From IMG/VR virus record IMGVR_UViG_3300025401_000648: a DNA stretch of 64,000 nt; one strand, written 5' to 3'. The notes below the pieces were generated by a model. The model searched no databases and was not told where the DNA came from. It was given only the letters and a program-made list of their open reading frames with translations. Position numbers and translations under genes: made by a program. The DNA is from a virus. Taxonomy: Duplodnaviria > Caudoviricetes. Positions 462 to 35,056 of this stretch are shown in pieces; positions within the stretch are counted from its first letter, which is position 1, and every line of letters starts with the position of its first letter.

Positions 462-3362
462 GTGGCAATAATTCCTGCTAGTCAAGACTTTATAATTAAG
501 AACGGTTTAATTGTCTTAGGACAAAACCCTGTTACAGACTCACAAAATCAAATTGGAGCGTTGCAAGCCTATGGCGGCGCGGCAATTGCACAAAACTTAA
601 TTGTAGGAACAACTGGTACATTTGGCGATGCATTATTTGTAACTACAACTGCCACGATTGGTTTAGATTTATCTGTAGGTGCTGGTGCAAACATTAGTCA
701 AGGATTGATAGTAAGCGGCCCTGCATCTTTTGGTGGTACTGTTAGTGTACAAAATACTACAACACTACAAGATTTAACTGTACAAGGTGCATTAAATGTT
801 GCAGGGGGTATTTCTCTAACTGGCGCACTAAATTTTAGTGGGACTAGTACGTTCTCGCAAAATCTTATTGTCGACAGTACTTTATCTAGTATTACAACAA
901 TAACATCCAATGCCATATATGTAGCAGGTGGTATTGGCATTGAGAACAATTTAGTTGTAGGTGGGCCTGTTTTATTTAAAGACACTGTAACATTCAATGG
1001 TACTGCTACCAATGTACTGTCTTCAAACACTTACTATACTGATAACCTACTTGAACTTCATGTACCAAATGCGGGTGTATACACGCCGTGGGCGTTTGAT
1101 GACGGGAAAGACATTGGATTTAGGTTCCATTACTTTAACGGCACAGATACAAATGCCGCACTTGTGCTGGCCAATGATACAAAATATTTAGAATGGTATA
1201 ATACTGGTGCAGAAAGCACATTAAGTAATTTTACCAGTGCAACTTACGGCACATTTAAAACTGGTGCAATTAAACTTGTATCTGGAAAGCCAAGTTTAGG
1301 CAGTACTAATACTGGAGATTTAACTGTTGTTGGTGGCGTTGGCATATGGCGTGATTTAACTGTCGGATCAACTGCAACAATTTCTGGCCCACTAACTGTT
1401 AATAGTTCTGCAACAATAACAGGTAATTTAACAGTAAATGGTTCAATATTTGGTACAGTTACTACAGCTACATTTGCTAATTCTGCAAATACTGCAACAA
1501 ACTTGGCAGGTGGAGCCTACGGTAGTTTACCATATCAGAGTAATACTGGTACTACAGCATTTTTACCAATTGGTGCCAACGGTACTTTATTAACTGTTGT
1601 TGCGAATTCATTAACATGGGCAAGTGCTAGTGGATCCACTGTTGGATTTGCGTTAACTTCTACAAACTTATTAGCAGGTACCGCAGGTGCTGTGCCGTTC
1701 CAAGCATCGCCCGGTGTAACAGCATTTGATGGCGCTAACTTTTATTATACAAATTCTGGAACTACAACTGCTACGTTAAATGTAGAAAACTTATCTATAT
1801 TTGGTTCTACACCAGGCACATTTACCGGAACAGGCGCACTGTCTGTAACAGGCGGTGCCTATTTTGGCAAACAAGTTTATATCAACGGAACTAGTACAGG
1901 TGCGTTAACTGTTGTTGGAGCATCAAGTTTTGGTGGAACCGTTACCTTAACTGGCTCAATTAATGGAGTATCTACTGGCTTAGGTACATTAGTTTTAACA
2001 AACGGTGGTATATATGCACGCCAAGATTTGTATTCTGGCGGCACTGTTACTGGTGAAAATTTACAAGATAGAACACTGGGTGGTAATAATTTAGTTTATT
2101 CTGATGTTTCTGGATTCTTACAAAACGCACAGCCATACTATAACACATTAACAAACATTATTGTTGGTACAATTACACAAGCCAACAATTTAACCGGCGG
2201 CTCAACCGGAGCAATTCCTTTCCAAAGTACCTCATCATCAACAACATTTGATATCGGTAACTTGTATTATTCATCTAGTACATTGTTCACACCATCATTA
2301 AATGTAGCAACATCGGCTACAATTGGTGGAAACCTGTATGTTGATGGAACAATTTTTATTCAAGGCGTTGGCGTTGAAACAATTACCAGCACTACTGGAT
2401 CGTTTAGAGATGTAGTTTCTACTGGTACAATCTATGCAAATAATATCACTGCCACTGATGTTTTTGCAGTAATTGGTACATTTACTAATTTAACAATATC
2501 AAATACTTTAACATCTAATGATGTACAATCCACGACATTAGAAGTTAGCGGACAAACTACTTTAGGTAATACAACTGCTACCAACGTAACAGTTACCAAC
2601 TTAACTGTTACTGGGTTATCCACTATTGGATCCATTGGATTTACCAACGCTACTGCAAATAACTTAACTGTTACCAATGTATTGACTGTGGGTAGCTTGA
2701 TAACTGCAACTAATGCAGTGTTTACAGGTACTGTAAACATGTCAGGATTGACAGTTACAAACACAATCAACGGCAATTACATAATTGGCAATTACTTGCA
2801 GTCCAACGGCAGTGCATTAATTAACAATACATTATCTGTAGTGAATACTGCTACAGTTGGCAGTGTAATTTCTACCAGTACGCAAGATGCCATTTCTACA
2901 ACCACTGGCAGTATTGTAAGTTCTGGTGGAATTGCTATCGCAAAGAGCATATATGCCGGCGGCCCAATAACTGTTGGTACTACACTATCTGCCCCTGGAA
3001 ATGTAGTTCCTGCGTTATACAGCAATAATACCGTAGTAGCCAGTTATACAAGTAATACAATAAGCGGTTCAAGCCCTGTTAACTTGGATAGTTATAATGC
3101 AACTACATATAGAACAGCTAGATATACTGTTCAAGTAGTAGATCAAGTCAACGTCTCAACTACCAGCTGTCATATTACAGAATTAACTGTGTTCCACGAT
3201 GGTGTAAACGTCTATATAAACGAGTACGGTACTAGTACGAACAACGGGGAACTTGGCGGATTTGGTGCCAATTTAGTAAGCGGACAAGTTGTACTAACCT
3301 TTACGCCAGTCAGCGCAACGTCGATGACAATCAAAGTTGTTAGATTTGGTATAACAGCCTAA
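462..3362 (+). CDS. Large Thr/Gly-rich tail-fibre-like virion protein (966 aa)
   Basis: GTG start; DFIIKNGL N-terminus similar to NFKVKNGL of the next ORF; repeated GGxGI and GAxPFQS modules; YRTARYTVQ C-terminal domain. Confidence 0.75.
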   Translation: MAIIPASQDFIIKNGLIVLGQNPVTDSQNQIGALQAYGGAAIAQNLIVGTTGTFGDALFVTTTATIGLDLSVGAGANISQGLIVSGPASFGGTVSVQNTTTLQDLTVQGALNVAGGISLTGALNFSGTSTFSQNLIVDSTLSSITTITSNAIYVAGGIGIENNLVVGGPVLFKDTVTFNGTATNVLSSNTYYTDNLLELHVPNAGVYTPWAFDDGKDIGFRFHYFNGTDTNAALVLANDTKYLEWYNTGAESTLSNFTSATYGTFKTGAIKLVSGKPSLGSTNTGDLTVVGGVGIWRDLTVGSTATISGPLTVNSSATITGNLTVNGSIFGTVTTATFANSANTATNLAGGAYGSLPYQSNTGTTAFLPIGANGTLLTVVANSLTWASASGSTVGFALTSTNLLAGTAGAVPFQASPGVTAFDGANFYYTNSGTTTATLNVENLSIFGSTPGTFTGTGALSVTGGAYFGKQVYINGTSTGALTVVGASSFGGTVTLTGSINGVSTGLGTLVLTNGGIYARQDLYSGGTVTGENLQDRTLGGNNLVYSDVSGFLQNAQPYYNTLTNIIVGTITQANNLTGGSTGAIPFQSTSSSTTFDIGNLYYSSSTLFTPSLNVATSATIGGNLYVDGTIFIQGVGVETITSTTGSFRDVVSTGTIYANNITATDVFAVIGTFTNLTISNTLTSNDVQSTTLEVSGQTTLGNTTATNVTVTNLTVTGLSTIGSIGFTNATANNLTVTNVLTVGSLITATNAVFTGTVNMSGLTVTNTINGNYIIGNYLQSNGSALINNTLSVVNTATVGSVISTSTQDAISTTTGSIVSSGGIAIAKSIYAGGPITVGTTLSAPGNVVPALYSNNTVVASYTSNTISGSSPVNLDSYNATTYRTARYTVQVVDQVNVSTTSCHITELTVFHDGVNVYINEYGTSTNNGELGGFGANLVSGQVVLTFTPVSATSMTIKVVRFGITA

Positions 3363-20006: not shown

Positions 20007-21352
20007 GATGCCTTATCGTATACACCATCGTAACTCTTGCCCCACTCGGTGCCGTTCCACATGTATTGTATACCCGTATAAGCATTAGTTATGTATGTTA
20101 CAGTAGTGCTGGCAGCAGAATTGAATATAACACTCCATGATGATCCATTCCACTGTATAATGTCATTGGCATGAGCAACAAATCCTGACCCATCACTGTT
20201 TAACCATGCTGACGGACCTATCACAGGCACAGAGTGTATATCCTCTAAAATTAGATATCTAGTGCCTGCTACTTTGACACTGGGGTTAAATGTATCTGGA
20301 TTAATAACAGCATCCACTGAACCTCTTCCATCAATAATAGTATTTTCAGGTATGGTGGCTGCATCAAAATTTAATATCATCTTTGTTTCATCTGTTGGAC
20401 TTAGAGTCATGAATGCCACAATTTCTAAACCGTTGGGTTTCTTTAATCTTAGTTGACTCAACCCTGCTGTAAATTTTCCTGGATACAAGCCTAATACTGC
20501 GTTCCAAGAAATTGGCGGCTGATTGGCATTTATATCTAAATTAGTAAATGTGTTGGCCTGCAAAGTAGCAACACCATCTAAAACCAGCAAGTTGTAATCA
20601 GTTGGTGTAACGACCACACTGACATCTGGGGTGCCAAATATTTGAGCACCATAACCTGCTTCTAGTCCAGATATCAATCCCTGTGTATCATCAAATACAT
20701 TGGAAATAATTTGTGTAACAATGTTTAGTTGTGTGACATTGGCTGGGGGTGAAATCCATATAGGGCTTTCAAAAACCAATGATGATATATCAATATCTTG
20801 TTCCAGTCCTTGAGGAATTTGTCTGCTGGACCAATTACCTTGATCAGTCAATGTTAACGTGATAAGACTGGTCCAGTCCACATAGTTATCGGTAGTTTGT
20901 AAATTTAAACTAGGATTGAACACCATGGCAATTTGTTCAATTATTTGAAATTTTTGATCAGTATTACTGGTCCAGATATCTGCGGCAAAAGTTACCTTAT
21001 AGGGACTGGGCATGATTCTTTCCACAGTGTAATTATTACCCTGTGTGTTTAGCAAATTCCCATTGGCATCAATAGCACGTTGTTGCAGATTGACTGTACT
21101 GACAAATGTTGGATCCTGTAGTCTAGTGCGATCATACTTCATATCCTTGATGTAGCAGGCAATCAAAGGTGCGCTGGGCACTGTATTTTCACTGTTCTTT
21201 CTCAGTATTTGACCCACTTGTCTACTTAGGTCGCCGTAACGTACTGGTACCTGTGTAATTTTACCTGTGGCATCTTTATAACTGAAATTACTCATCAGTC
21301 GAATAAATTGAGTGATATATCGGCGCAGTTGGCCATCATAAAAATATTGAAT
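19988..21352 (-). CDS. T4 gp15-like tail terminator/sheath stabiliser (proposed ATT start; ORF track starts at 21295)
   Basis: PSPYK..F..DIWTSNTDQK.QI.EQI...FNP core; reading frame extends upstream as IQYFYDGQLRRYITQFIRL with no ATG/GTG/TTG before an in-frame TAA. Confidence 0.7.
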   Translation of the reverse strand: MQYFYDGQLRRYITQFIRLMSNFSYKDATGKITQVPVRYGDLSRQVGQILRKNSENTVPSAPLIACYIKDMKYDRTRLQDPTFVSTVNLQQRAIDANGNLLNTQGNNYTVERIMPSPYKVTFAADIWTSNTDQKFQIIEQIAMVFNPSLNLQTTDNYVDWTSLITLTLTDQGNWSSRQIPQGLEQDIDISSLVFESPIWISPPANVTQLNIVTQIISNVFDDTQGLISGLEAGYGAQIFGTPDVSVVVTPTDYNLLVLDGVATLQANTFTNLDINANQPPISWNAVLGLYPGKFTAGLSQLRLKKPNGLEIVAFMTLSPTDETKMILNFDAATIPENTIIDGRGSVDAVINPDTFNPSVKVAGTRYLILEDIHSVPVIGPSAWLNSDGSGFVAHANDIIQWNGSSWSVIFNSAASTTVTYITNAYTGIQYMWNGTEWGKSYDGVYDKASWRLIL

Positions 21353-21356
21353 AATA

Positions 21357-21404
21357 TTACAACGGCGTTAAGCCGTAGCCTCCTTTAAATTTATAGATAT
21401 ACAT
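21357..21404 (-). pseudogene. 15-codon mini-ORF MYIYKFKGGYGLTPL, probable collapsed GIY-YIG endonuclease relic
   Basis: ATG 4 nt after the gp14-like stop; MYIYK resembles GIY-YIG N-termini; contains AAAGGAGG and an ACGGC/GCCGT hairpin. Confidence 0.5.
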
Positions 21405-21408
21405 ATTT

Positions 21409-22626
21409 TTAGAGATCCGCTTTAGGTTTTAATACTTTACTCAATGGTTGACGTTGTGGATATGTTAATCCATCATTCAGTGTTATAGTAGCAGTATTAT
21501 TAATGAATCCAGTTTTTTCTGTTAGTCTAACTTGTTGTCCAGCAAACACTGTACCTGGCGCAACATCACTGCTACTGAAATTATTCATGGTCATTCTAAC
21601 ATCTTTTTGCCATTGTATCCAATGTTTACCATCAAATCTATAAAGTACATTTGGCAAATAGTCTGTTCTTAAAAAGAATTGACCTACCACTGCTCCGCCT
21701 GGAAATTCAATACCAGCGCTAAATGGTGCGCCATCAGGAGGTTGAGTACCACCTCCGTTGGGATAAGAAACATATTCAATCTTGCTGGGACTATGTAGCA
21801 CAATACTGGCATCATAGGCAGGTTGTTCAATACTAGCATCTTGATCCATTGTTGATGCGTCGGCAACGTCTAATAGCCCAGCATCTGTAAGAGGTACGAT
21901 GTACAAAGGGGTAGTGTCAAATCCACTTTGTGGCGCATCCAGTGTTGCTTGGGCGATAATTTGATTATTAATATCAACACTTTGTTGATATGTACTCAGT
22001 AGGTCTCGCAATGTGCTGCCGTCTCCATTACCAGCATCTTGATCAAAGATTTGTTTGTATTCTTGACTATCTACTAGAGGTACACATTTAGCACGTAGTA
22101 AGTGCGGGTACCATGTAGGGCTATATCCAGCCGCTGGACGAGTAACGTCTTGAACAACATAAAATCTTTTTAAGGCCACCAACGATTCGTCTAGTCCATA
22201 CTCGTCTTTTAAGTGAGGTAATTCAATGACATCGCCAGGCATAATTTTTCTAGACAGCGCATCTACAGTGCCGCGTAGGTGAAACATGATAAAAATATTA
22301 TCGTTACTTAAAAACATACCAAACTGACTTAGATTAAAATCCAAATCCTGCATGGTATAGATTCCACGGATAACATAAATGTCAGGAGCATAGTTTCTAT
22401 CTCTATTTTCCATTAAAAGCACATCTTGGATACTTAATTCAGGAATAGGATTAGCACTAGTATCTGGAACTGCCGGGGTAGCAGTCCCCTCTGCTGGATT
22501 TACAGGTCCTAGATATTTGTGAACAAATACATCAGTCCCACCAACTTGGAATTCTTCATTGATAATTCTATCAAGGAATCTAAAATCATTGCCCTTTTCG
22601 GGTTTGTATAAACTTAGACGAGGAAT
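21409..22626 (-). CDS. T4 gp14-like neck protein (proposed ATT start; ORF track starts at TTG 22653)
   Basis: PRLSLYKPEKGNDFRFLDR N-terminus, GGTDVFVHKYLGP, DLDFNLSQFG, GDVIELPHL; AAGGAG lies 7 nt before ATT. Confidence 0.7.
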   Translation of the reverse strand: MPRLSLYKPEKGNDFRFLDRIINEEFQVGGTDVFVHKYLGPVNPAEGTATPAVPDTSANPIPELSIQDVLLMENRDRNYAPDIYVIRGIYTMQDLDFNLSQFGMFLSNDNIFIMFHLRGTVDALSRKIMPGDVIELPHLKDEYGLDESLVALKRFYVVQDVTRPAAGYSPTWYPHLLRAKCVPLVDSQEYKQIFDQDAGNGDGSTLRDLLSTYQQSVDINNQIIAQATLDAPQSGFDTTPLYIVPLTDAGLLDVADASTMDQDASIEQPAYDASIVLHSPSKIEYVSYPNGGGTQPPDGAPFSAGIEFPGGAVVGQFFLRTDYLPNVLYRFDGKHWIQWQKDVRMTMNNFSSSDVAPGTVFAGQQVRLTEKTGFINNTATITLNDGLTYPQRQPLSKVLKPKADL

Positions 22627-22769
22627 TTTAATTCTCCTTTGACAACCTTGCAATTATCAATATGATGTTTTTCTGTGTAATCGCTGGTTATTCTGCTCTG
22701 TGCGTTGGCAACAATTGCATAATACCAGCGAGTGTACTTGTTGGTCAAAAATGAATTTAGTATTGGCAT
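22614..22769 (-). pseudogene. 51-aa mini-ORF, internally deleted HNH homing endonuclease relic
   Basis: MPILNSFLTNKYTRWYYAIVANAQSRITSDYTEKHHI|DNCKVVKGELKFLV: typical phage HNH N-terminus joined directly to a DNCK-type C-terminal end; not in the ORF track. Confidence 0.7.
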
Positions 22770-22776
22770 AGTAATG

Positions 22777-22803
22777 TATTTATGGCTAGCACACGGCTAA
22801 ATA
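22777..22803. promoter_or_regulatory. Divergent pair of late promoters (TAAATA on each strand)
   Basis: Minus TAAATA 22777-22782 (7 nt to ATG 22769); plus TAAATA 22798-22803 (5 nt to ATG 22809). Confidence 0.7.
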
Positions 22804-22808
22804 TTATC

Positions 22809-23567
22809 ATGAACGAAAATGAAAACGCCCGCCAACAAGTTATAGATTACATTAAGACTTTCCTAGGTGATGGGATGGTTGATGTAGAACTGGATCCCAA
22901 GCACTATAATGTTGCTATAGATCGAGCTCTTGCCAAATATCGTCAGAGAAGCAGTAATGCTCAAGAAGAAAGTTTTGGATTCCTAACGCTACAGGTTAAT
23001 CAGAATGATTACACCATGCCCAAAGAAGTAACAGAAATTCGACAGCTATTTAGACGTAGTATTGGTAGTAGAAGCGGTGGTGGCGATGGCGGCAGTTTGT
23101 TCGAGCCCTTTAACTTGGCCTATTCCAACACCTATCTATTGGCATCAACCAACATGGGCGGCTTGGCTACTTATTACGCATTTGCTAGTTACCAAAAACA
23201 AGTTGGTAAAATGTTTGGTAGTGATATCAATTTTACCTACAATAGGACCAATAAAGTATTGACTATTATGCAACGTCCGCAGTCTGAAGAAGAAGTACTG
23301 GTTTGGATGTACAACTATCGTCCAGATTTTGACATTTTAGCGGATAATTTTGCTGGACAATGGATCAAGGACTTTGCCCTGGCCAGTTCTAAAATTATAT
23401 TAGGCGAGGCTCGTGAAAAATTTGCCACTATTGCCAGTCCACAAGGCGGTATTCAACTAAACGGCACTGCTCTTAAAAATGAAGGCAAAGCTGAATTAGA
23501 AGTTTTAGAGCAAGATCTAATTAACTACAAAGAAGGCGGAACACCGTTGACATGGGTAACCGGCTAA
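22809..23567 (+). CDS. T4 gp13-like neck protein
   Basis: LGDGMVDVELDPKHY, W.KDFALA..K.ILGEAREKF...PQGG..LNG; start moved to the ATG just after TAAATA. Confidence 0.8.
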   Translation: MNENENARQQVIDYIKTFLGDGMVDVELDPKHYNVAIDRALAKYRQRSSNAQEESFGFLTLQVNQNDYTMPKEVTEIRQLFRRSIGSRSGGGDGGSLFEPFNLAYSNTYLLASTNMGGLATYYAFASYQKQVGKMFGSDINFTYNRTNKVLTIMQRPQSEEEVLVWMYNYRPDFDILADNFAGQWIKDFALASSKIILGEAREKFATIASPQGGIQLNGTALKNEGKAELEVLEQDLINYKEGGTPLTWVTG

Positions 23568-24373: not shown

Positions 24374-25081
24374 ATGATCATTGGTGTGTGTGGTTTTATT
24401 GGGTCAGGTAAAGATACTATTGCTGACTATTTGACAAATTTTCATGGTTTTCGAAGAGAAAGTTTTGCCGGTAGTTTAAAGGACGCAGTAGCACAAGTGT
24501 TTGGTTGGGATCGAACTATGTTAGAAGGTCGAACTAATTCTGCCCGTGAATGGCGAGAACAAGTGGACACTTGGTGGGCTGAACGGTTAGACATGCCACA
24601 CCTAACCCCACGTTGGGTATTACAATATTGGGGCACAGAAGTTTGTCGCAATGGTTTTCATGATGATATTTGGATTTCTGCTCTGGAAAACAAACTACGC
24701 AACAGTAAGGACGATGTTGTTATCAGTGATTGTCGATTCCCTAACGAAATTAAATCAATCCGTGATGCGGGCGGTATTGTTATTCGGGTAAAGCGTGGCC
24801 CAGAGCCTGACTGGTATCGAGATGCCGCAGACATGAATGCCGGAGATCACTGTATAAATTGGGCACTTGCTTCAAATCGAATGAGACAGTTGGGCATACA
24901 TGCGTCAGAGACTGCTTGGGTAGGTACCAAATTTGATCATGTTTTAGAAAATGACAGCAGTATAGACAATTTATATGCTCAGGTTAGATCATTGATTAAA
25001 AGTCCGGAGTTAGAGCCCCTTGACGCCAGCGAACGCCCTCTTTATGTAGGACTCGTTGACAATTGGCACACACCGTCTTAA
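24374..25081 (+). CDS. Deoxynucleoside monophosphate kinase (T4 gp1-like)
   Basis: GFIGSGKDT P-loop, TPRWVLQYWGTE, VISDCRFPNE, HASE. Confidence 0.9.
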   Translation: MIIGVCGFIGSGKDTIADYLTNFHGFRRESFAGSLKDAVAQVFGWDRTMLEGRTNSAREWREQVDTWWAERLDMPHLTPRWVLQYWGTEVCRNGFHDDIWISALENKLRNSKDDVVISDCRFPNEIKSIRDAGGIVIRVKRGPEPDWYRDAADMNAGDHCINWALASNRMRQLGIHASETAWVGTKFDHVLENDSSIDNLYAQVRSLIKSPELEPLDASERPLYVGLVDNWHTPS

Positions 25082-25331
25082 GATTCAAGACGCTGTTGTT
25101 CATTAAATTTCCATCAATATGGAACACATCAAACTGTTCCATATGTTTGCTACTGAATCCACATTTATCACAGGCATTCTTCTTTTTATAGCCTGCTAGA
25201 GCCCATAACGGGTTTCCTTGTTCACGGCTTCGGCTACAGTGATCACACTTAGACCTATAATAAGGTCTTCCTTCTTTATAGTAGTTGACTGCTACTGGTC
25301 TTTGTCGACATATCTTACATAAATTTCTCAT
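24996..25331 (-). CDS. Zn-finger HNH endonuclease
   Basis: CxxC pairs, VFHIDGNLMNN...NLKTVCANC. Confidence 0.8.
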   Translation of the reverse strand: MRNLCKICRQRPVAVNYYKEGRPYYRSKCDHCSRSREQGNPLWALAGYKKKNACDKCGFSSKHMEQFDVFHIDGNLMNNSVLNLKTVCANCQRVLHKEGVRWRQGALTPDF

Positions 25332-33466: not shown

Positions 33467-35056
33467 ATGGGCTCAAAGAATCTCGATGGCGTTTTAATAA
33501 AAAAAGCGAATACAACACAAAAATGGACTGAAAAAGATATTCAGGATTTGATGCTATGTCAAGATCCTGTTGAAGGTCCTAAGTATTTTTTAAAAAACTT
33601 TTTCTATATTCAACATGCTACCAGAGGGCAGATAAAATACGATGCCTTTGAATATCAAGACGAACTGTTAGAAAGTTATCATACACATCGTTTCAGTGTA
33701 AACATGCTGGGACGACAGATGGGCAAAACTACCACTGCGGTGGGTTACCTATTATGGTATGCCATGTTTAATGCGGATAGCACTATTTTAATTTGTGCTC
33801 ACAAGTTCTCTGGTGCTCAGGAAATTATGCAACGCCTACGCTATGCCTATGAAACTTGTCCTGACTGGATACGTGCTGGTGTTACCAGTTACAATAAACA
33901 AAGTATTGAATTTGAGAACGGTTCGCGCATTGTGGCACAAACAACCACAGAAACAACAGGTCGTGGTATGTCTATATCCCTGCTATACTGTGACGAGTTT
34001 GCCTATGTTGCTCCTAATATTGCCAGCGAATTCTGGACTTCTATCGCTCCTACACTGGCAACTGGTGGTAAGGCTATTATTACATCAACACCAAATAGTG
34101 ATGAAGACCAATTCGCACAAATTTGGAATGAAGCAAACAAACGCATTGATGAATACGGTAATAGCACAGAATTAGGACGCAACGGCTACTATCCTTATAT
34201 GGCTATTTGGAATCAACATCCAGATCGAGACAAGGTATGGGCTGACGAAATGCGTAGTCAGTTAGGCCCTGAAAGATTCGAACGTGAGCATGAATGTAAA
34301 TTCTTGATCTTTGATGAGACGTTGATCAGCTCAATGTGTTTGTCAAATTTGGAAGGTGAAGAGCCTAAAATGAAAATGGGCCAAGCTCGTTGGTACAAAA
34401 AGATCAATCCGTCAAGCACCTATATCTGTAGTCTAGATCCCAGTTTAGGTACCGGTGGTGACTATGGCGCAATTGAAATAATAGAAATACCCAGTATGGA
34501 TCAAGTGGCAGAATGGCATCATAATCTAACCCCTGTTCAAGCACAGGTTAGAATCATGCGCGACATGCTATTACATATTGACGAAAAATGTAAGAGTGCC
34601 AATGTAACCCCCAGCATTTATTACAGTGTTGAAAATAACACATTAGGGGAAAGTGCCCTAATGGCCATAGAAGCGCTGGGTGAAGAAAGTTTTCCAGGAC
34701 TATTTTTGAGCGAGCCAGTCAAACGTGGGCATGTTCGTAAGTTTAGAAGAGGATTTAATACAACGCACGGCAGTAAAATATCCGCTTGTGCCAAGTTAAA
34801 ACAATTAATTGAAACTAAAAAACTTAAAATTCGTAGCAAGGCATTAATTAGTGAATTAAAAACCTTCATAGGTGAAGGCGTGACATTCAAAGCCAAAGGC
34901 GGCCAGCACGATGATTTGGTTTCCAGCTTACTTTTGGCCATTAGAATGATCATGACCCTACAGGATTGGGATCCAGCAATCTACGACAAAATGCGTGATC
35001 AGGAGGGCTTGGAGGAACATGACTTGCCCATGCCTATTTACATATCCACATATTGA
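33467..35056 (+). CDS. terL: Terminase large subunit (T4 gp17-like)
   Basis: GRQMGKTT Walker A, LLYCDEFA Walker B, TSTPN, SLDPSLGTGGD nuclease start, HDDLV. Confidence 0.95.
   Translation: MGSKNLDGVLIKKANTTQKWTEKDIQDLMLCQDPVEGPKYFLKNFFYIQHATRGQIKYDAFEYQDELLESYHTHRFSVNMLGRQMGKTTTAVGYLLWYAMFNADSTILICAHKFSGAQEIMQRLRYAYETCPDWIRAGVTSYNKQSIEFENGSRIVAQTTTETTGRGMSISLLYCDEFAYVAPNIASEFWTSIAPTLATGGKAIITSTPNSDEDQFAQIWNEANKRIDEYGNSTELGRNGYYPYMAIWNQHPDRDKVWADEMRSQLGPERFEREHECKFLIFDETLISSMCLSNLEGEEPKMKMGQARWYKKINPSSTYICSLDPSLGTGGDYGAIEIIEIPSMDQVAEWHHNLTPVQAQVRIMRDMLLHIDEKCKSANVTPSIYYSVENNTLGESALMAIEALGEESFPGLFLSEPVKRGHVRKFRRGFNTTHGSKISACAKLKQLIETKKLKIRSKALISELKTFIGEGVTFKAKGGQHDDLVSSLLLAIRMIMTLQDWDPAIYDKMRDQEGLEEHDLPMPIYISTY

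Follow-up and report, generated by a model that had tools for sequence, protein, structure and literature searches.

A collapsed HNH homing endonuclease gene probably supplies the Shine-Dalgarno sequence and AUU start codon of a neck-position structural gene in an uncultured jumbo phage

The DNA analyzed here, referred to as the window, is a stretch of 64,000 nucleotides (nt) from a virus of the class Caudoviricetes (IMG/VR record IMGVR_UViG_3300025401_000648), and its minus strand carries a virion structural gene at the position of a neck gene. The region in front of this neck gene is most probably a decayed, free-standing, Mob-like HNH/NUMOD3 homing endonuclease gene (HEG) that supplies both the Shine-Dalgarno (SD) sequence and the AUU start codon of the neck gene. 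An earlier note, made from the sequence of the window alone, had described a TAAATA element followed after 7 nt by ATG CCA and a 51-codon open reading frame (ORF), and all of its sequence statements hold on the minus strand (Table 1). ATG CCA of the relic ORF was read at positions 22769 to 22764, and the neck gene opens from position 22626 with ATT CCT CGT CTA AGT. The distance from the ATG to the ATT is 143 nt, which, as the earlier note had remarked, is not a multiple of 3. AAAGGAG is located 7 nt before ATT CCT CGT CTA at the 3' end of the relic ORF, the TAA of which overlaps codons 4 and 5 of the neck gene. The encoded peptide, MPILNSFLTNKYTRWYYAIV...TEKHHI, is fused straight to DNCKVVKGELKFLV, without the core of the endonuclease between them.

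An intact parent of the relic was identified in two IMG/VR contigs, L004 and L005, which are 92 to 96% identical to the window at the nucleotide level and carry, at the same ATG, an HNH- and NUMOD3-containing HEG of 247 amino acids (positions 2270 to 3013 in L004). The intact HEG starts at TAAATA-N7-ATG and ends in the AAAGGAG-N7-ATT junction, both as in the window. The relic matches the ends of the L004 HEG in all 156 nt (111 nt from the 5' end and 45 nt from the 3' end), and the first 37 and last 14 residues of the parent are equal to the 51-mer: codons 1 to 37 of the relic correspond to the N terminus through the first HH of the HNH motif, and codons 38 to 51 correspond to the C-terminal tail DNCKVVKGELKFLV. 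The window allele equals the L004 allele minus 588 nt (196 codons), lost in frame with a 2-nt TG microhomology, and BLAST, direct sequence comparison, and an alignment place the deletion at 22659/22658, where ...CATCATATTG is joined to ATAATTGC.... The proposed loss of the catalytic middle was thus borne out. With this segment the remainder of the HNH core was lost, along with the NUMOD3 repeats and a Cys-rich C-terminal module, and nuclease activity of the relic is therefore precluded. In the 51-mer, the HNH motif (HH...N...H) is incomplete, as ...TEKHHI is kept while N and the distal H are deleted, and the window copy, from which the DNA-binding modules (the NUMOD3 repeats and the Cys-rich module) are also absent, is therefore a relic and not a functional HNH member.

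The HNH similarity that had been supposed for the 51-mer was found at several levels. The 51-mer itself matched PHROG 655 (homing endonuclease; E = 2.2e-7), with no match in Pfam. The L004 parent carries the whole HNH motif (HHIVPKSLGG..ENLV..REH) and a CxxC...H..C module preceding the tail, and it matched Pfam NUMOD3 with 36.6 bits (cutoff, 20.4). A profile of the HEG family matched the McrA HNH domain (E = 0.002), and annotated Mob-like HNH endonucleases of T4-type phages, among them those of RB16 and Aeromonas phage 25, align with 91 to 96% of the L004 HEG at 33 to 37% identity. No paralogues of the 51-mer were found inside the window. A tblastn search of cultured phages with the 51-mer gave no match, the peptide being too short, and the full-length parent does match; a nucleotide search of cultured phages with the region gave only a weak 100-nt match to Pectobacterium phage CBB. 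In a predicted folding of the relic mRNA, the minimum free energy structure pairs the SD with nt 15 to 28 of the relic ORF and the centroid structure lacks this pairing (z = -2.2); this prediction was not used.

Empty, full, and collapsed alleles, for which the earlier note had suggested a survey of the neck gene 5' regions, all exist among relatives. IMG/VR was scanned with the neck protein (80 loci; 48 to 100% identity) and searched further with the HEG and then with the junction motif; since sampling was by two different queries, the allele frequencies are not meaningful, but their interspersion is. About 70 loci are empty and read TAAATA-N7-ATG CCN CGN/AGA (MPRLSLYKPEKG) with no SD. These represent about 45 distinct neck sequences that start with MPRLS, and TAAATA-N7-ATG without an SD is conserved in all of these approximately 45 alleles; the divergent genes are only ~30 nt apart, with nothing but CAT-N5-TATTTA...TAAATA-N7-ATG between them. 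In the empty locus L006 (94% amino acid identity), the upstream sequence is nearly as in the window up to ATGCCA, and ATG CCA CGC (MPRLS) is read exactly where the ATG of the relic ORF sits. Intact HEGs start at TAAATA-N(4-7)-ATG in L004, L086, L088, L089, L091, L099, and L100 and so occupy the position of the neck ATG in the empty alleles, in agreement with the earlier proposal of a free-standing HEG at the start codon. HEG-neck junctions were found in many lineages (neck identity to the window, 39 to 100%; HEG identity, 37 to 100%), and the neck gene behind them invariably combines an SD with a start codon other than ATG.

Besides the 51-codon relic of the window, independent collapsed alleles of 113, 37, 36, 27, 25, 21, 21, 14, and 11 codons were identified; these differ in both HEG lineage of origin and junction. 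Minimal scars of the form TAAATA-N7-AAGGAGAAYTAAA-ATT, in which a 13-nt scar remains with no upstream ATG or ORF, are present in at least three clades. A stop codon at +10 (TAA or TGA) is found in all full HEGs and in 10 of the 14 collapsed alleles with a promoter-proximal ATG; three of the others are in the frame that stops at the spacer TAA, one stops before the SD, and none is in the neck frame (P of about 0.004 for each frame bias among the 14 alleles). Termination close to the AUU seems to be favored and fusion disfavored. Codon 2 after the ATG is CC(A/T) in a lineage-specific manner and encodes Q, S, L, or A in other HEG lineages, which leaves more than one possible insertion point within ATG|CC.

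The start codon of the neck gene is strikingly constant behind the HEG-derived sequence. Wherever the AAGGAGAAYTAAA motif is present (52 distinct alleles), ATT is read and never ATG. When the start codon was left free in the search pattern, ATT was present in 63 of 63 neck-linked matches in IMG/VR and in 26 of 26 in metagenomes, and the few matches with other codons were unrelated sequences. L088 and L090 read TAGGAGTATAAC-GTG, and a distant clade uses TTG. No in-frame ATG, GTG, or TTG exists between the preceding stop and the ATT in 45 of the 52 distinct ATT alleles, an in-frame TAA often lies 4 codons before the ATT in relatives, and downstream of the ATT in the window, no canonical start is reached until 68 codons into the gene. 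Residues P1, R2, L3, and S4 are invariant in the family, with synonymous variation among ATT alleles. Moreover, the 17-nt junction motif is identical between HEGs with only 37% protein identity, which argues for selection on the nucleotides themselves, and this constancy is consistent with the claim that the 3' end of the HEG provides the SD and the AUU. As judged from the sequences, initiation at AUU, 7 nt after a strong SD, appears to be the only reading that fits all alleles, and the minimal scars without an upstream ORF show that it would need no coupling, frameshifting, or bypass. Strict translational coupling, considered as a requirement, was ruled out by the scars that lack any upstream ORF.

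Some observations weigh against the reading of the region as a HEG relic that took over the neck start, and they are collected here. The parent HEG scored 21.3 bits against Pfam HNH, just under the gathering cutoff of 21.4. A scan of metagenome contigs for the collapsed junction, from which the record of the window itself may have been hidden, gave no matches, and the junction was seen only in the window. TAAATA may act in translation and not as a promoter, and transcripts could begin further upstream. In L029 and L030 (about positions 1000 to 1210 of L029), a related HEG lies in this intergenic region as well, but upstream of TAAATA, and the neck gene keeps its leaderless-type ATG. The HEGs of L170, L093 to L096, and L109 also lie upstream of TAAATA, and there the neck gene has its own leader with an SD and ATT (L170) or TTG (L093 to L096 and L109). 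As HEGs are found both at the ATG and upstream of TAAATA, the family uses at least two insertion geometries, and as ATG can be kept or GTG or TTG used, ATT is not obligatory for carrying a HEG.

The alternative that survives best, although we consider it improbable, also belongs among these points and touches only the deep history of the locus: the SD-ATT neck allele may be older than, and independent of, the HEG, with HEGs inserting between the promoter and the SD and with the scars representing preinsertion sites. Minimal SD-ATT alleles with identical boundaries do occur in several clades, the most distant sampled clade has SD-ATT alleles only, and cultured relatives have leadered SD-ATG starts. 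However, a graded series of relics leads down to the bare motif, and close relatives carry a mixture of SD-ATT and leaderless-ATG alleles, as for a motif that travels with a mobile gene. HEG relatives located away from neck genes lack the GELKF tail, which fits either direction. In the window, both ends of the relic are still HEG coding sequence, and the direction from full to collapsed is therefore unambiguous there.

Initiation at the in-frame TTG at 22653 (MQGCQRRIKIPRL...), with the ATT as merely an internal Ile codon, had been named in the earlier note as a competing start and is very unlikely. The ORF finder picked this TTG, which is a canonical start codon, and in tblastn searches the matches with Atu_ph07 and Phosso start from residues 6 to 8 of the TTG ORF. 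However, the TTG lacks an SD, apart from the lineage of the window and L004 only a few others have it, and all homologues, including those of cultured phages, begin with M-x-R-L/F/M-S. Furthermore, the 45 of 52 ATT alleles without a canonical start upstream, many of which have a TAA 4 codons before the ATT, speak against it; the TTG is not a conserved start, and in most relatives an in-frame stop separates its position from the ATT.

Little credence can be given to recoding from the relic ORF that would link the relic peptide, or its Met-Pro, to PRLS..., either by a -1 slip on A-AAA at the junction or by a 143-nt bypass of the T4 gene 60 type. In its favor, four consecutive A residues preceded by the SD are read in the relic ORF in a frame that is -1 to that of the neck gene, ATG CCA and ATT CCT could resemble take-off and landing sites, and the HEG frame is kept in 10 of 14 collapsed alleles. 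However, three collapsed alleles are in another frame and one stops before the SD, the minimal scars keep an intact, conserved neck gene without any upstream ORF, and the HEG ORF of the GTG alleles ends before the start codon. In addition, no stop codon follows CCA, signals like those of gene 60 are not evident, and a fusion in the full alleles would make a structural protein about 240 residues longer.

A similarly low probability is assigned to the collapsed allele being an assembly artifact or lying in a dead-end pseudogene context with a silent neck gene. The window junction is indeed found in no other contig, but the microhomology is only 2 nt, which makes repeat-driven misassembly unlikely, and at least nine other independent collapsed alleles come from other samples. 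The neck gene is also intact, its differences from L004 being almost exclusively synonymous (see below), and the contig L040 matches the downstream part of the window at 100%, the relic on the side of the gp15-like gene included. Finally, a self-splicing intron or intein that restores MPRLS, which the earlier note had also raised, has next to no chance of being correct: HNH endonucleases are often intron encoded and removal of the 143 nt restores the ancestral reading, but no Rfam match at an E value of ≤1 was detected in window positions 22300 to 23000 or L004 positions 2150 to 3150, neither 143 nt nor a 13-nt scar could accommodate a group I or II ribozyme, an insert that precedes codon 2 and is not a multiple of 3 is not an intein, and splicing leaves the conserved, ideally spaced SD unexplained.

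Signs of mobility were found around the relic, which shows no differences from L004. It lies at the center of a mismatch-free tract (22541 to 22891), the flanks of which have diverged by about 3.5% in the neck gene and about 13% in the adaptor gene; at 13% divergence, the chance of 110 nt without a mismatch is about 2e-7. This pattern resembles a conversion tract centered on the HEG. A maximum-likelihood tree was constructed for 86 neck proteins, on which no fewer than 13 switches between the two start types (leaderless ATG and SD/non-ATG) are required, at least seven of them forced by well-supported branches. Close pairs with different states include L031 (empty) and L224 (full), as well as L006 (empty) and L004 (full) together with the window. 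One fixed site is thus polymorphic for the presence of the HEG among close relatives, with an exchange tract around it, and this points to a mobile element, for which we infer nuclease activity and homing.

TABLE 1 Sequence features of the neck gene region and TAAATA-associated starts in the window
Feature	Position(s)	Strand	Remark
TAAATA element	22777-22782	-	Late-promoter-like (putative function); 7-nt spacer CATTACT, then ATG CCA
Relic ORF, 51 codons	22614-22769	-	ATG at 22769-22767; probable collapsed Mob-like HNH/NUMOD3 HEG
Deletion junction	22658-22659	-	TG microhomology; BLAST against L004 and direct sequence comparison
Shine-Dalgarno sequence AAAGGAG	22634-22640	-	In last HEG codons (KGE); 7 nt before ATT
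ATT, putative AUU start of neck-like gene	22624-22626	-	Position of ATG in empty alleles
Neck-position virion structural gene	21409-22626	-	405 codons from ATT, intact; PHROG 11591
Relic ORF stop TAA	22614-22616	-	Within neck codons 4-5 (CTA AGT); 10 nt past ATT
Mismatch-free tract versus L004	22541-22891		HEG relic at center; looks like gene-conversion or co-conversion tract
TAAATA-N5-ATG of divergent adaptor gene	22798-22811	+	Only 39 nt separate the two ATGs
TAAATA-N5-7-ATG starts	22809, 29194, 31732, 33467, 35071, 48320, 52413	+	ORFs of 87-707 codons
TAAATA-N5-7-ATG starts	61486, 60832, 58609, 52381	-	ORFs of 87-707 codons

In the mechanism proposed here, the neck gene would ancestrally have had its ATG 7 nt after TAAATA without an SD, implying an mRNA that is leaderless or has a 2-nt leader. 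The HEG cassette sits exactly at this ATG, and the HEG ORF would use the promoter and the 5'-proximal ATG and be expressed late as a leaderless message from the neck promoter. TAAATA would thus drive the neck gene in empty alleles and, in the window, the relic ORF together with the neck gene that follows. The last HEG codons (KGELKF..) encode the SD (AAGGAG), a 7-nt A/U spacer, and an ATT replacing the neck ATG, the HEG stop is built from neck codons 4 and 5, and the neck protein would then be made by SD-directed initiation at AUU. In the lineage of the window, the 588-nt in-frame deletion between TG microhomologies removed the catalytic and DNA-binding parts, so that the remnant holds the two ends relevant to the phage, i.e., the promoter with the ATG and the SD with the AUU, and in other lineages decay would have proceeded down to the 13-nt SD scar and ATT. 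As the initiation signals of the neck gene lie inside the relic, the relic would be kept unless the leaderless ATG were precisely restored, and the phage probably cannot simply delete these 51 codons.

Initiation factor IF3 discriminates against AUU starts and antagonizes leaderless translation (reviewed in PMC4611024). Our guess is that AUU has been retained because AUU and leaderless AUG, both antagonized by IF3 and dependent on IF2, belong to the same translational class and give a comparably modest level of product. Alternatively, or in addition, ATT, a G-to-T change, may protect the occupied site from recleavage. Since the ATG is kept in L029 and L030, in which the HEG lies upstream of the promoter, neither idea about the retention of AUU is proven.

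A parallel, independent GIY-YIG relic with an ATT start was observed at the adjacent gp15-like gene (window positions 21350 to 21408, minus strand). In L004 and L006, the gp15-like gene starts at an ATG just after the neck stop (TAAAATG) and reads ATG CAA with no insert. The window has 52 to 54 extra nt after that ATG, which begin with ATG TAT ATC TAT AAA TTT (MYIYKF) and include AAAGGAGG as well as a hairpin (ACGGC/GCCGT); ATT CAA TAT (IQYFYDG) comes next. MYIYKF is the N terminus of a GIY-YIG endonuclease: relatives, including L044, L048, L175, and L090 (169 to 176 amino acids in these four), have intact GIY-YIG HEGs of 169 to 194 amino acids at this site, which start with MHIYKFTH... and match Pfam GIY-YIG with 33 to 35 bits. 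The gp15-like genes behind the intact GIY-YIG HEGs start at ATT, ATC, or ATA.

A broader proposal is put forward tentatively, at somewhat less than even confidence: that a portable SD-N7-AUH cassette at the 3' end of a HEG allows insertion at codon 1 of essential late genes without splicing and outlives the nuclease as a 13-nt scar, that it acts as a ratchet from leaderless AUG to SD-AUU in which the weak AUU is actively maintained, perhaps to keep the gene in one class with the many leaderless late mRNAs of the phage or to make the site immune to recleavage, and that it evolved twice in adjacent genes, with an HNH HEG at the neck gene and a GIY-YIG HEG at the gp15-like gene.

The closest known systems are the T4-type Mob-like HNH endonucleases (MobA to MobE and that of RB16), with which the L004 parent shares an N-terminal HNH motif and NUMOD3 repeats and also the free-standing location between conserved genes, the variable presence, and the position behind a late-type promoter. 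T4 HEGs are translated late (PMC2988022). However, the T4 mob genes lie between genes or overlap the end of the upstream gene, and none of them has been described as taking over the promoter-proximal start codon of a downstream gene and supplying it with an SD and a noncanonical start. The window copy, moreover, retains only 51 codons. HEGs are also known to split genes without splicing, as shown for mobE in Aeh1 nrdA ("genes-in-pieces"), mobA with T4 gene 39/60, and seg43(25) in gene 43 of phage 25 (PMC2988022). In these cases, too, a free-standing HEG is located in the expression unit of an essential gene and the host function is kept by a translational fix, but the neck gene of the window is unsplit, and its fix would be a portable SD-N7-AUU rather than separate polypeptides or hopping. 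Because the insertion is at codon 1, the whole neck protein is preserved. Bonocora et al. are said to have described in 2011 that mobA and the gene-60 bypass element form one mobile cassette.

In Escherichia coli infC, the AUU start serves autoregulation by the gene's own product. Like that of infC, the putative AUU start of the neck gene follows an SD, and it would face discrimination by IF3 (PMC4611024). The neck AUU differs, however, in that it would have been inherited from a mobile element and would replace a leaderless AUG. The Goddard-Burt homing cycle comprises invasion, fixation, degeneration, loss, and reinvasion. The coexistence of empty, intact, degenerate, and scar alleles and the many state changes on the neck tree resemble this cycle, but complete loss appears to be blocked at the 13-nt SD and ATT. 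Since decay would stop at the SD and ATT needed by the host gene, the result would be a permanent change in the mode of translation.

No description of a HEG supplying the start codon, or an AUU, of a host gene was found in a full-text search of the literature, and the insertion at codon 1, the takeover of the promoter-proximal start, the portable SD-AUU cassette, and the scar that alters the mode of initiation are new. Besides splicing and gene splitting or bypass, taking the start signals of an essential gene and handing back a replacement would be a third route for selfish nucleases. Rare AUU, AUC, and AUA starts in phage structural genes can then be scars of mobile elements, and such starts are missed by annotation pipelines, as illustrated here by the ORF finder, which chose a spurious TTG. 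The more than 50 alleles, ranging from intact to the 13-nt scar, offer a natural experiment on noncanonical initiation, on leaderless versus SD-led translation, and on HEG decay, in an uncultured group of jumbo phages with many apparently leaderless late genes behind a T4-like TAAATA.

The neck ORF matched PHROG 11591 (virion structural protein; E = 7e-78), and its homologues in the jumbo phages Atu_ph07, Phosso, PA5oct, and the Rak2/121Q group are 30 to 37% identical. Those of PA5oct and Atu_ph07 are annotated as virion structural proteins, with electrospray ionization tandem mass spectrometry (ESI-MS/MS) noted for PA5oct. The cultured relatives start with M-A/T-R/H-L/F/M-S-L-W and have an ordinary leader and SD. 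The neck gene is flanked by a divergent gene for a head-tail adaptor (PHROG 211) on one side and by a gene for a T4-gp15-type sheath stabilizer (PF16724; E = 4e-20) on the other. However, the neck protein matched neither T4 gp14 nor any solved structure in Pfam, NCBIfam, and PDB sequence and profile searches, and an AlphaFold2 model based on a 14-sequence alignment had a mean predicted local distance difference test score of 40 and was unusable for fold comparison. The designation "gp14-like" used in the earlier note was therefore kept only in part: the gene order, the PHROG match, and the annotations of the homologues agree with a virion structural gene at this position, but there is no sequence match to gp14, and since the label follows from the gene order between the adaptor and gp15-type genes alone, it is only positional. 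Comparison of the neck gene with that of L004 revealed 43 nt differences, which fall into 39 synonymous codons and 1 nonsynonymous codon, a pattern that indicates an intact gene under purifying selection that is still functional.

The TAAATA-ATG arrangement is not confined to the neck gene. Among the 16 TAAATA-N3-9-ATG sites in the window, 11 open ORFs of 87 to 707 codons (Table 1), and all of these have the spacing TAAATA-N5-7-ATG, which leaves no room for an SD. Two divergent TAAATA pairs are located near 35031/35071 and 52381/52413, and ATAAATA is depleted in the window (10 observed versus 23 expected). By analogy to the T4 late promoter, transcripts would start 0 to 2 nt before these ATGs, which suggests leaderless mRNAs for many of the late genes of this phage. 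Together with the empty alleles that keep TAAATA-N7-ATG without an SD, these 11 similar ORFs favor, by the same analogy, the earlier suggestion that a leaderless-type start was taken over. The adaptor ORF was called from the ATG at 22782 (MASTRLNII...), which overlaps the promoter element of the neck gene. Its relatives begin at an ATG equivalent to that at 22809, which in the window lies 5 nt after the adaptor gene's own TAAATA, and, given the late-promoter analogy for such sites, the real start of the adaptor gene is probably ATG 22809 and not ATG 22782.

Relatives of the HEG that are not linked to neck genes (L111, L120, L125, L130, L136, and L144) have a conserved leader, ...CTCTAAC...AAGGAGCAnCAGCA-ATG. 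Several of them end in an ATGA overlap with a downstream gene (MTRKLEDLF...), and insertion right at gene starts may therefore be a habit of the family. Elsewhere in the window, a Cys-rich ORF of 111 amino acids (24996 to 25331, minus strand) contains an HNH-like sequence, ...FHIDGN...N...CANCQ, that is unrelated to the relic family, and it may encode another small HNH nuclease.

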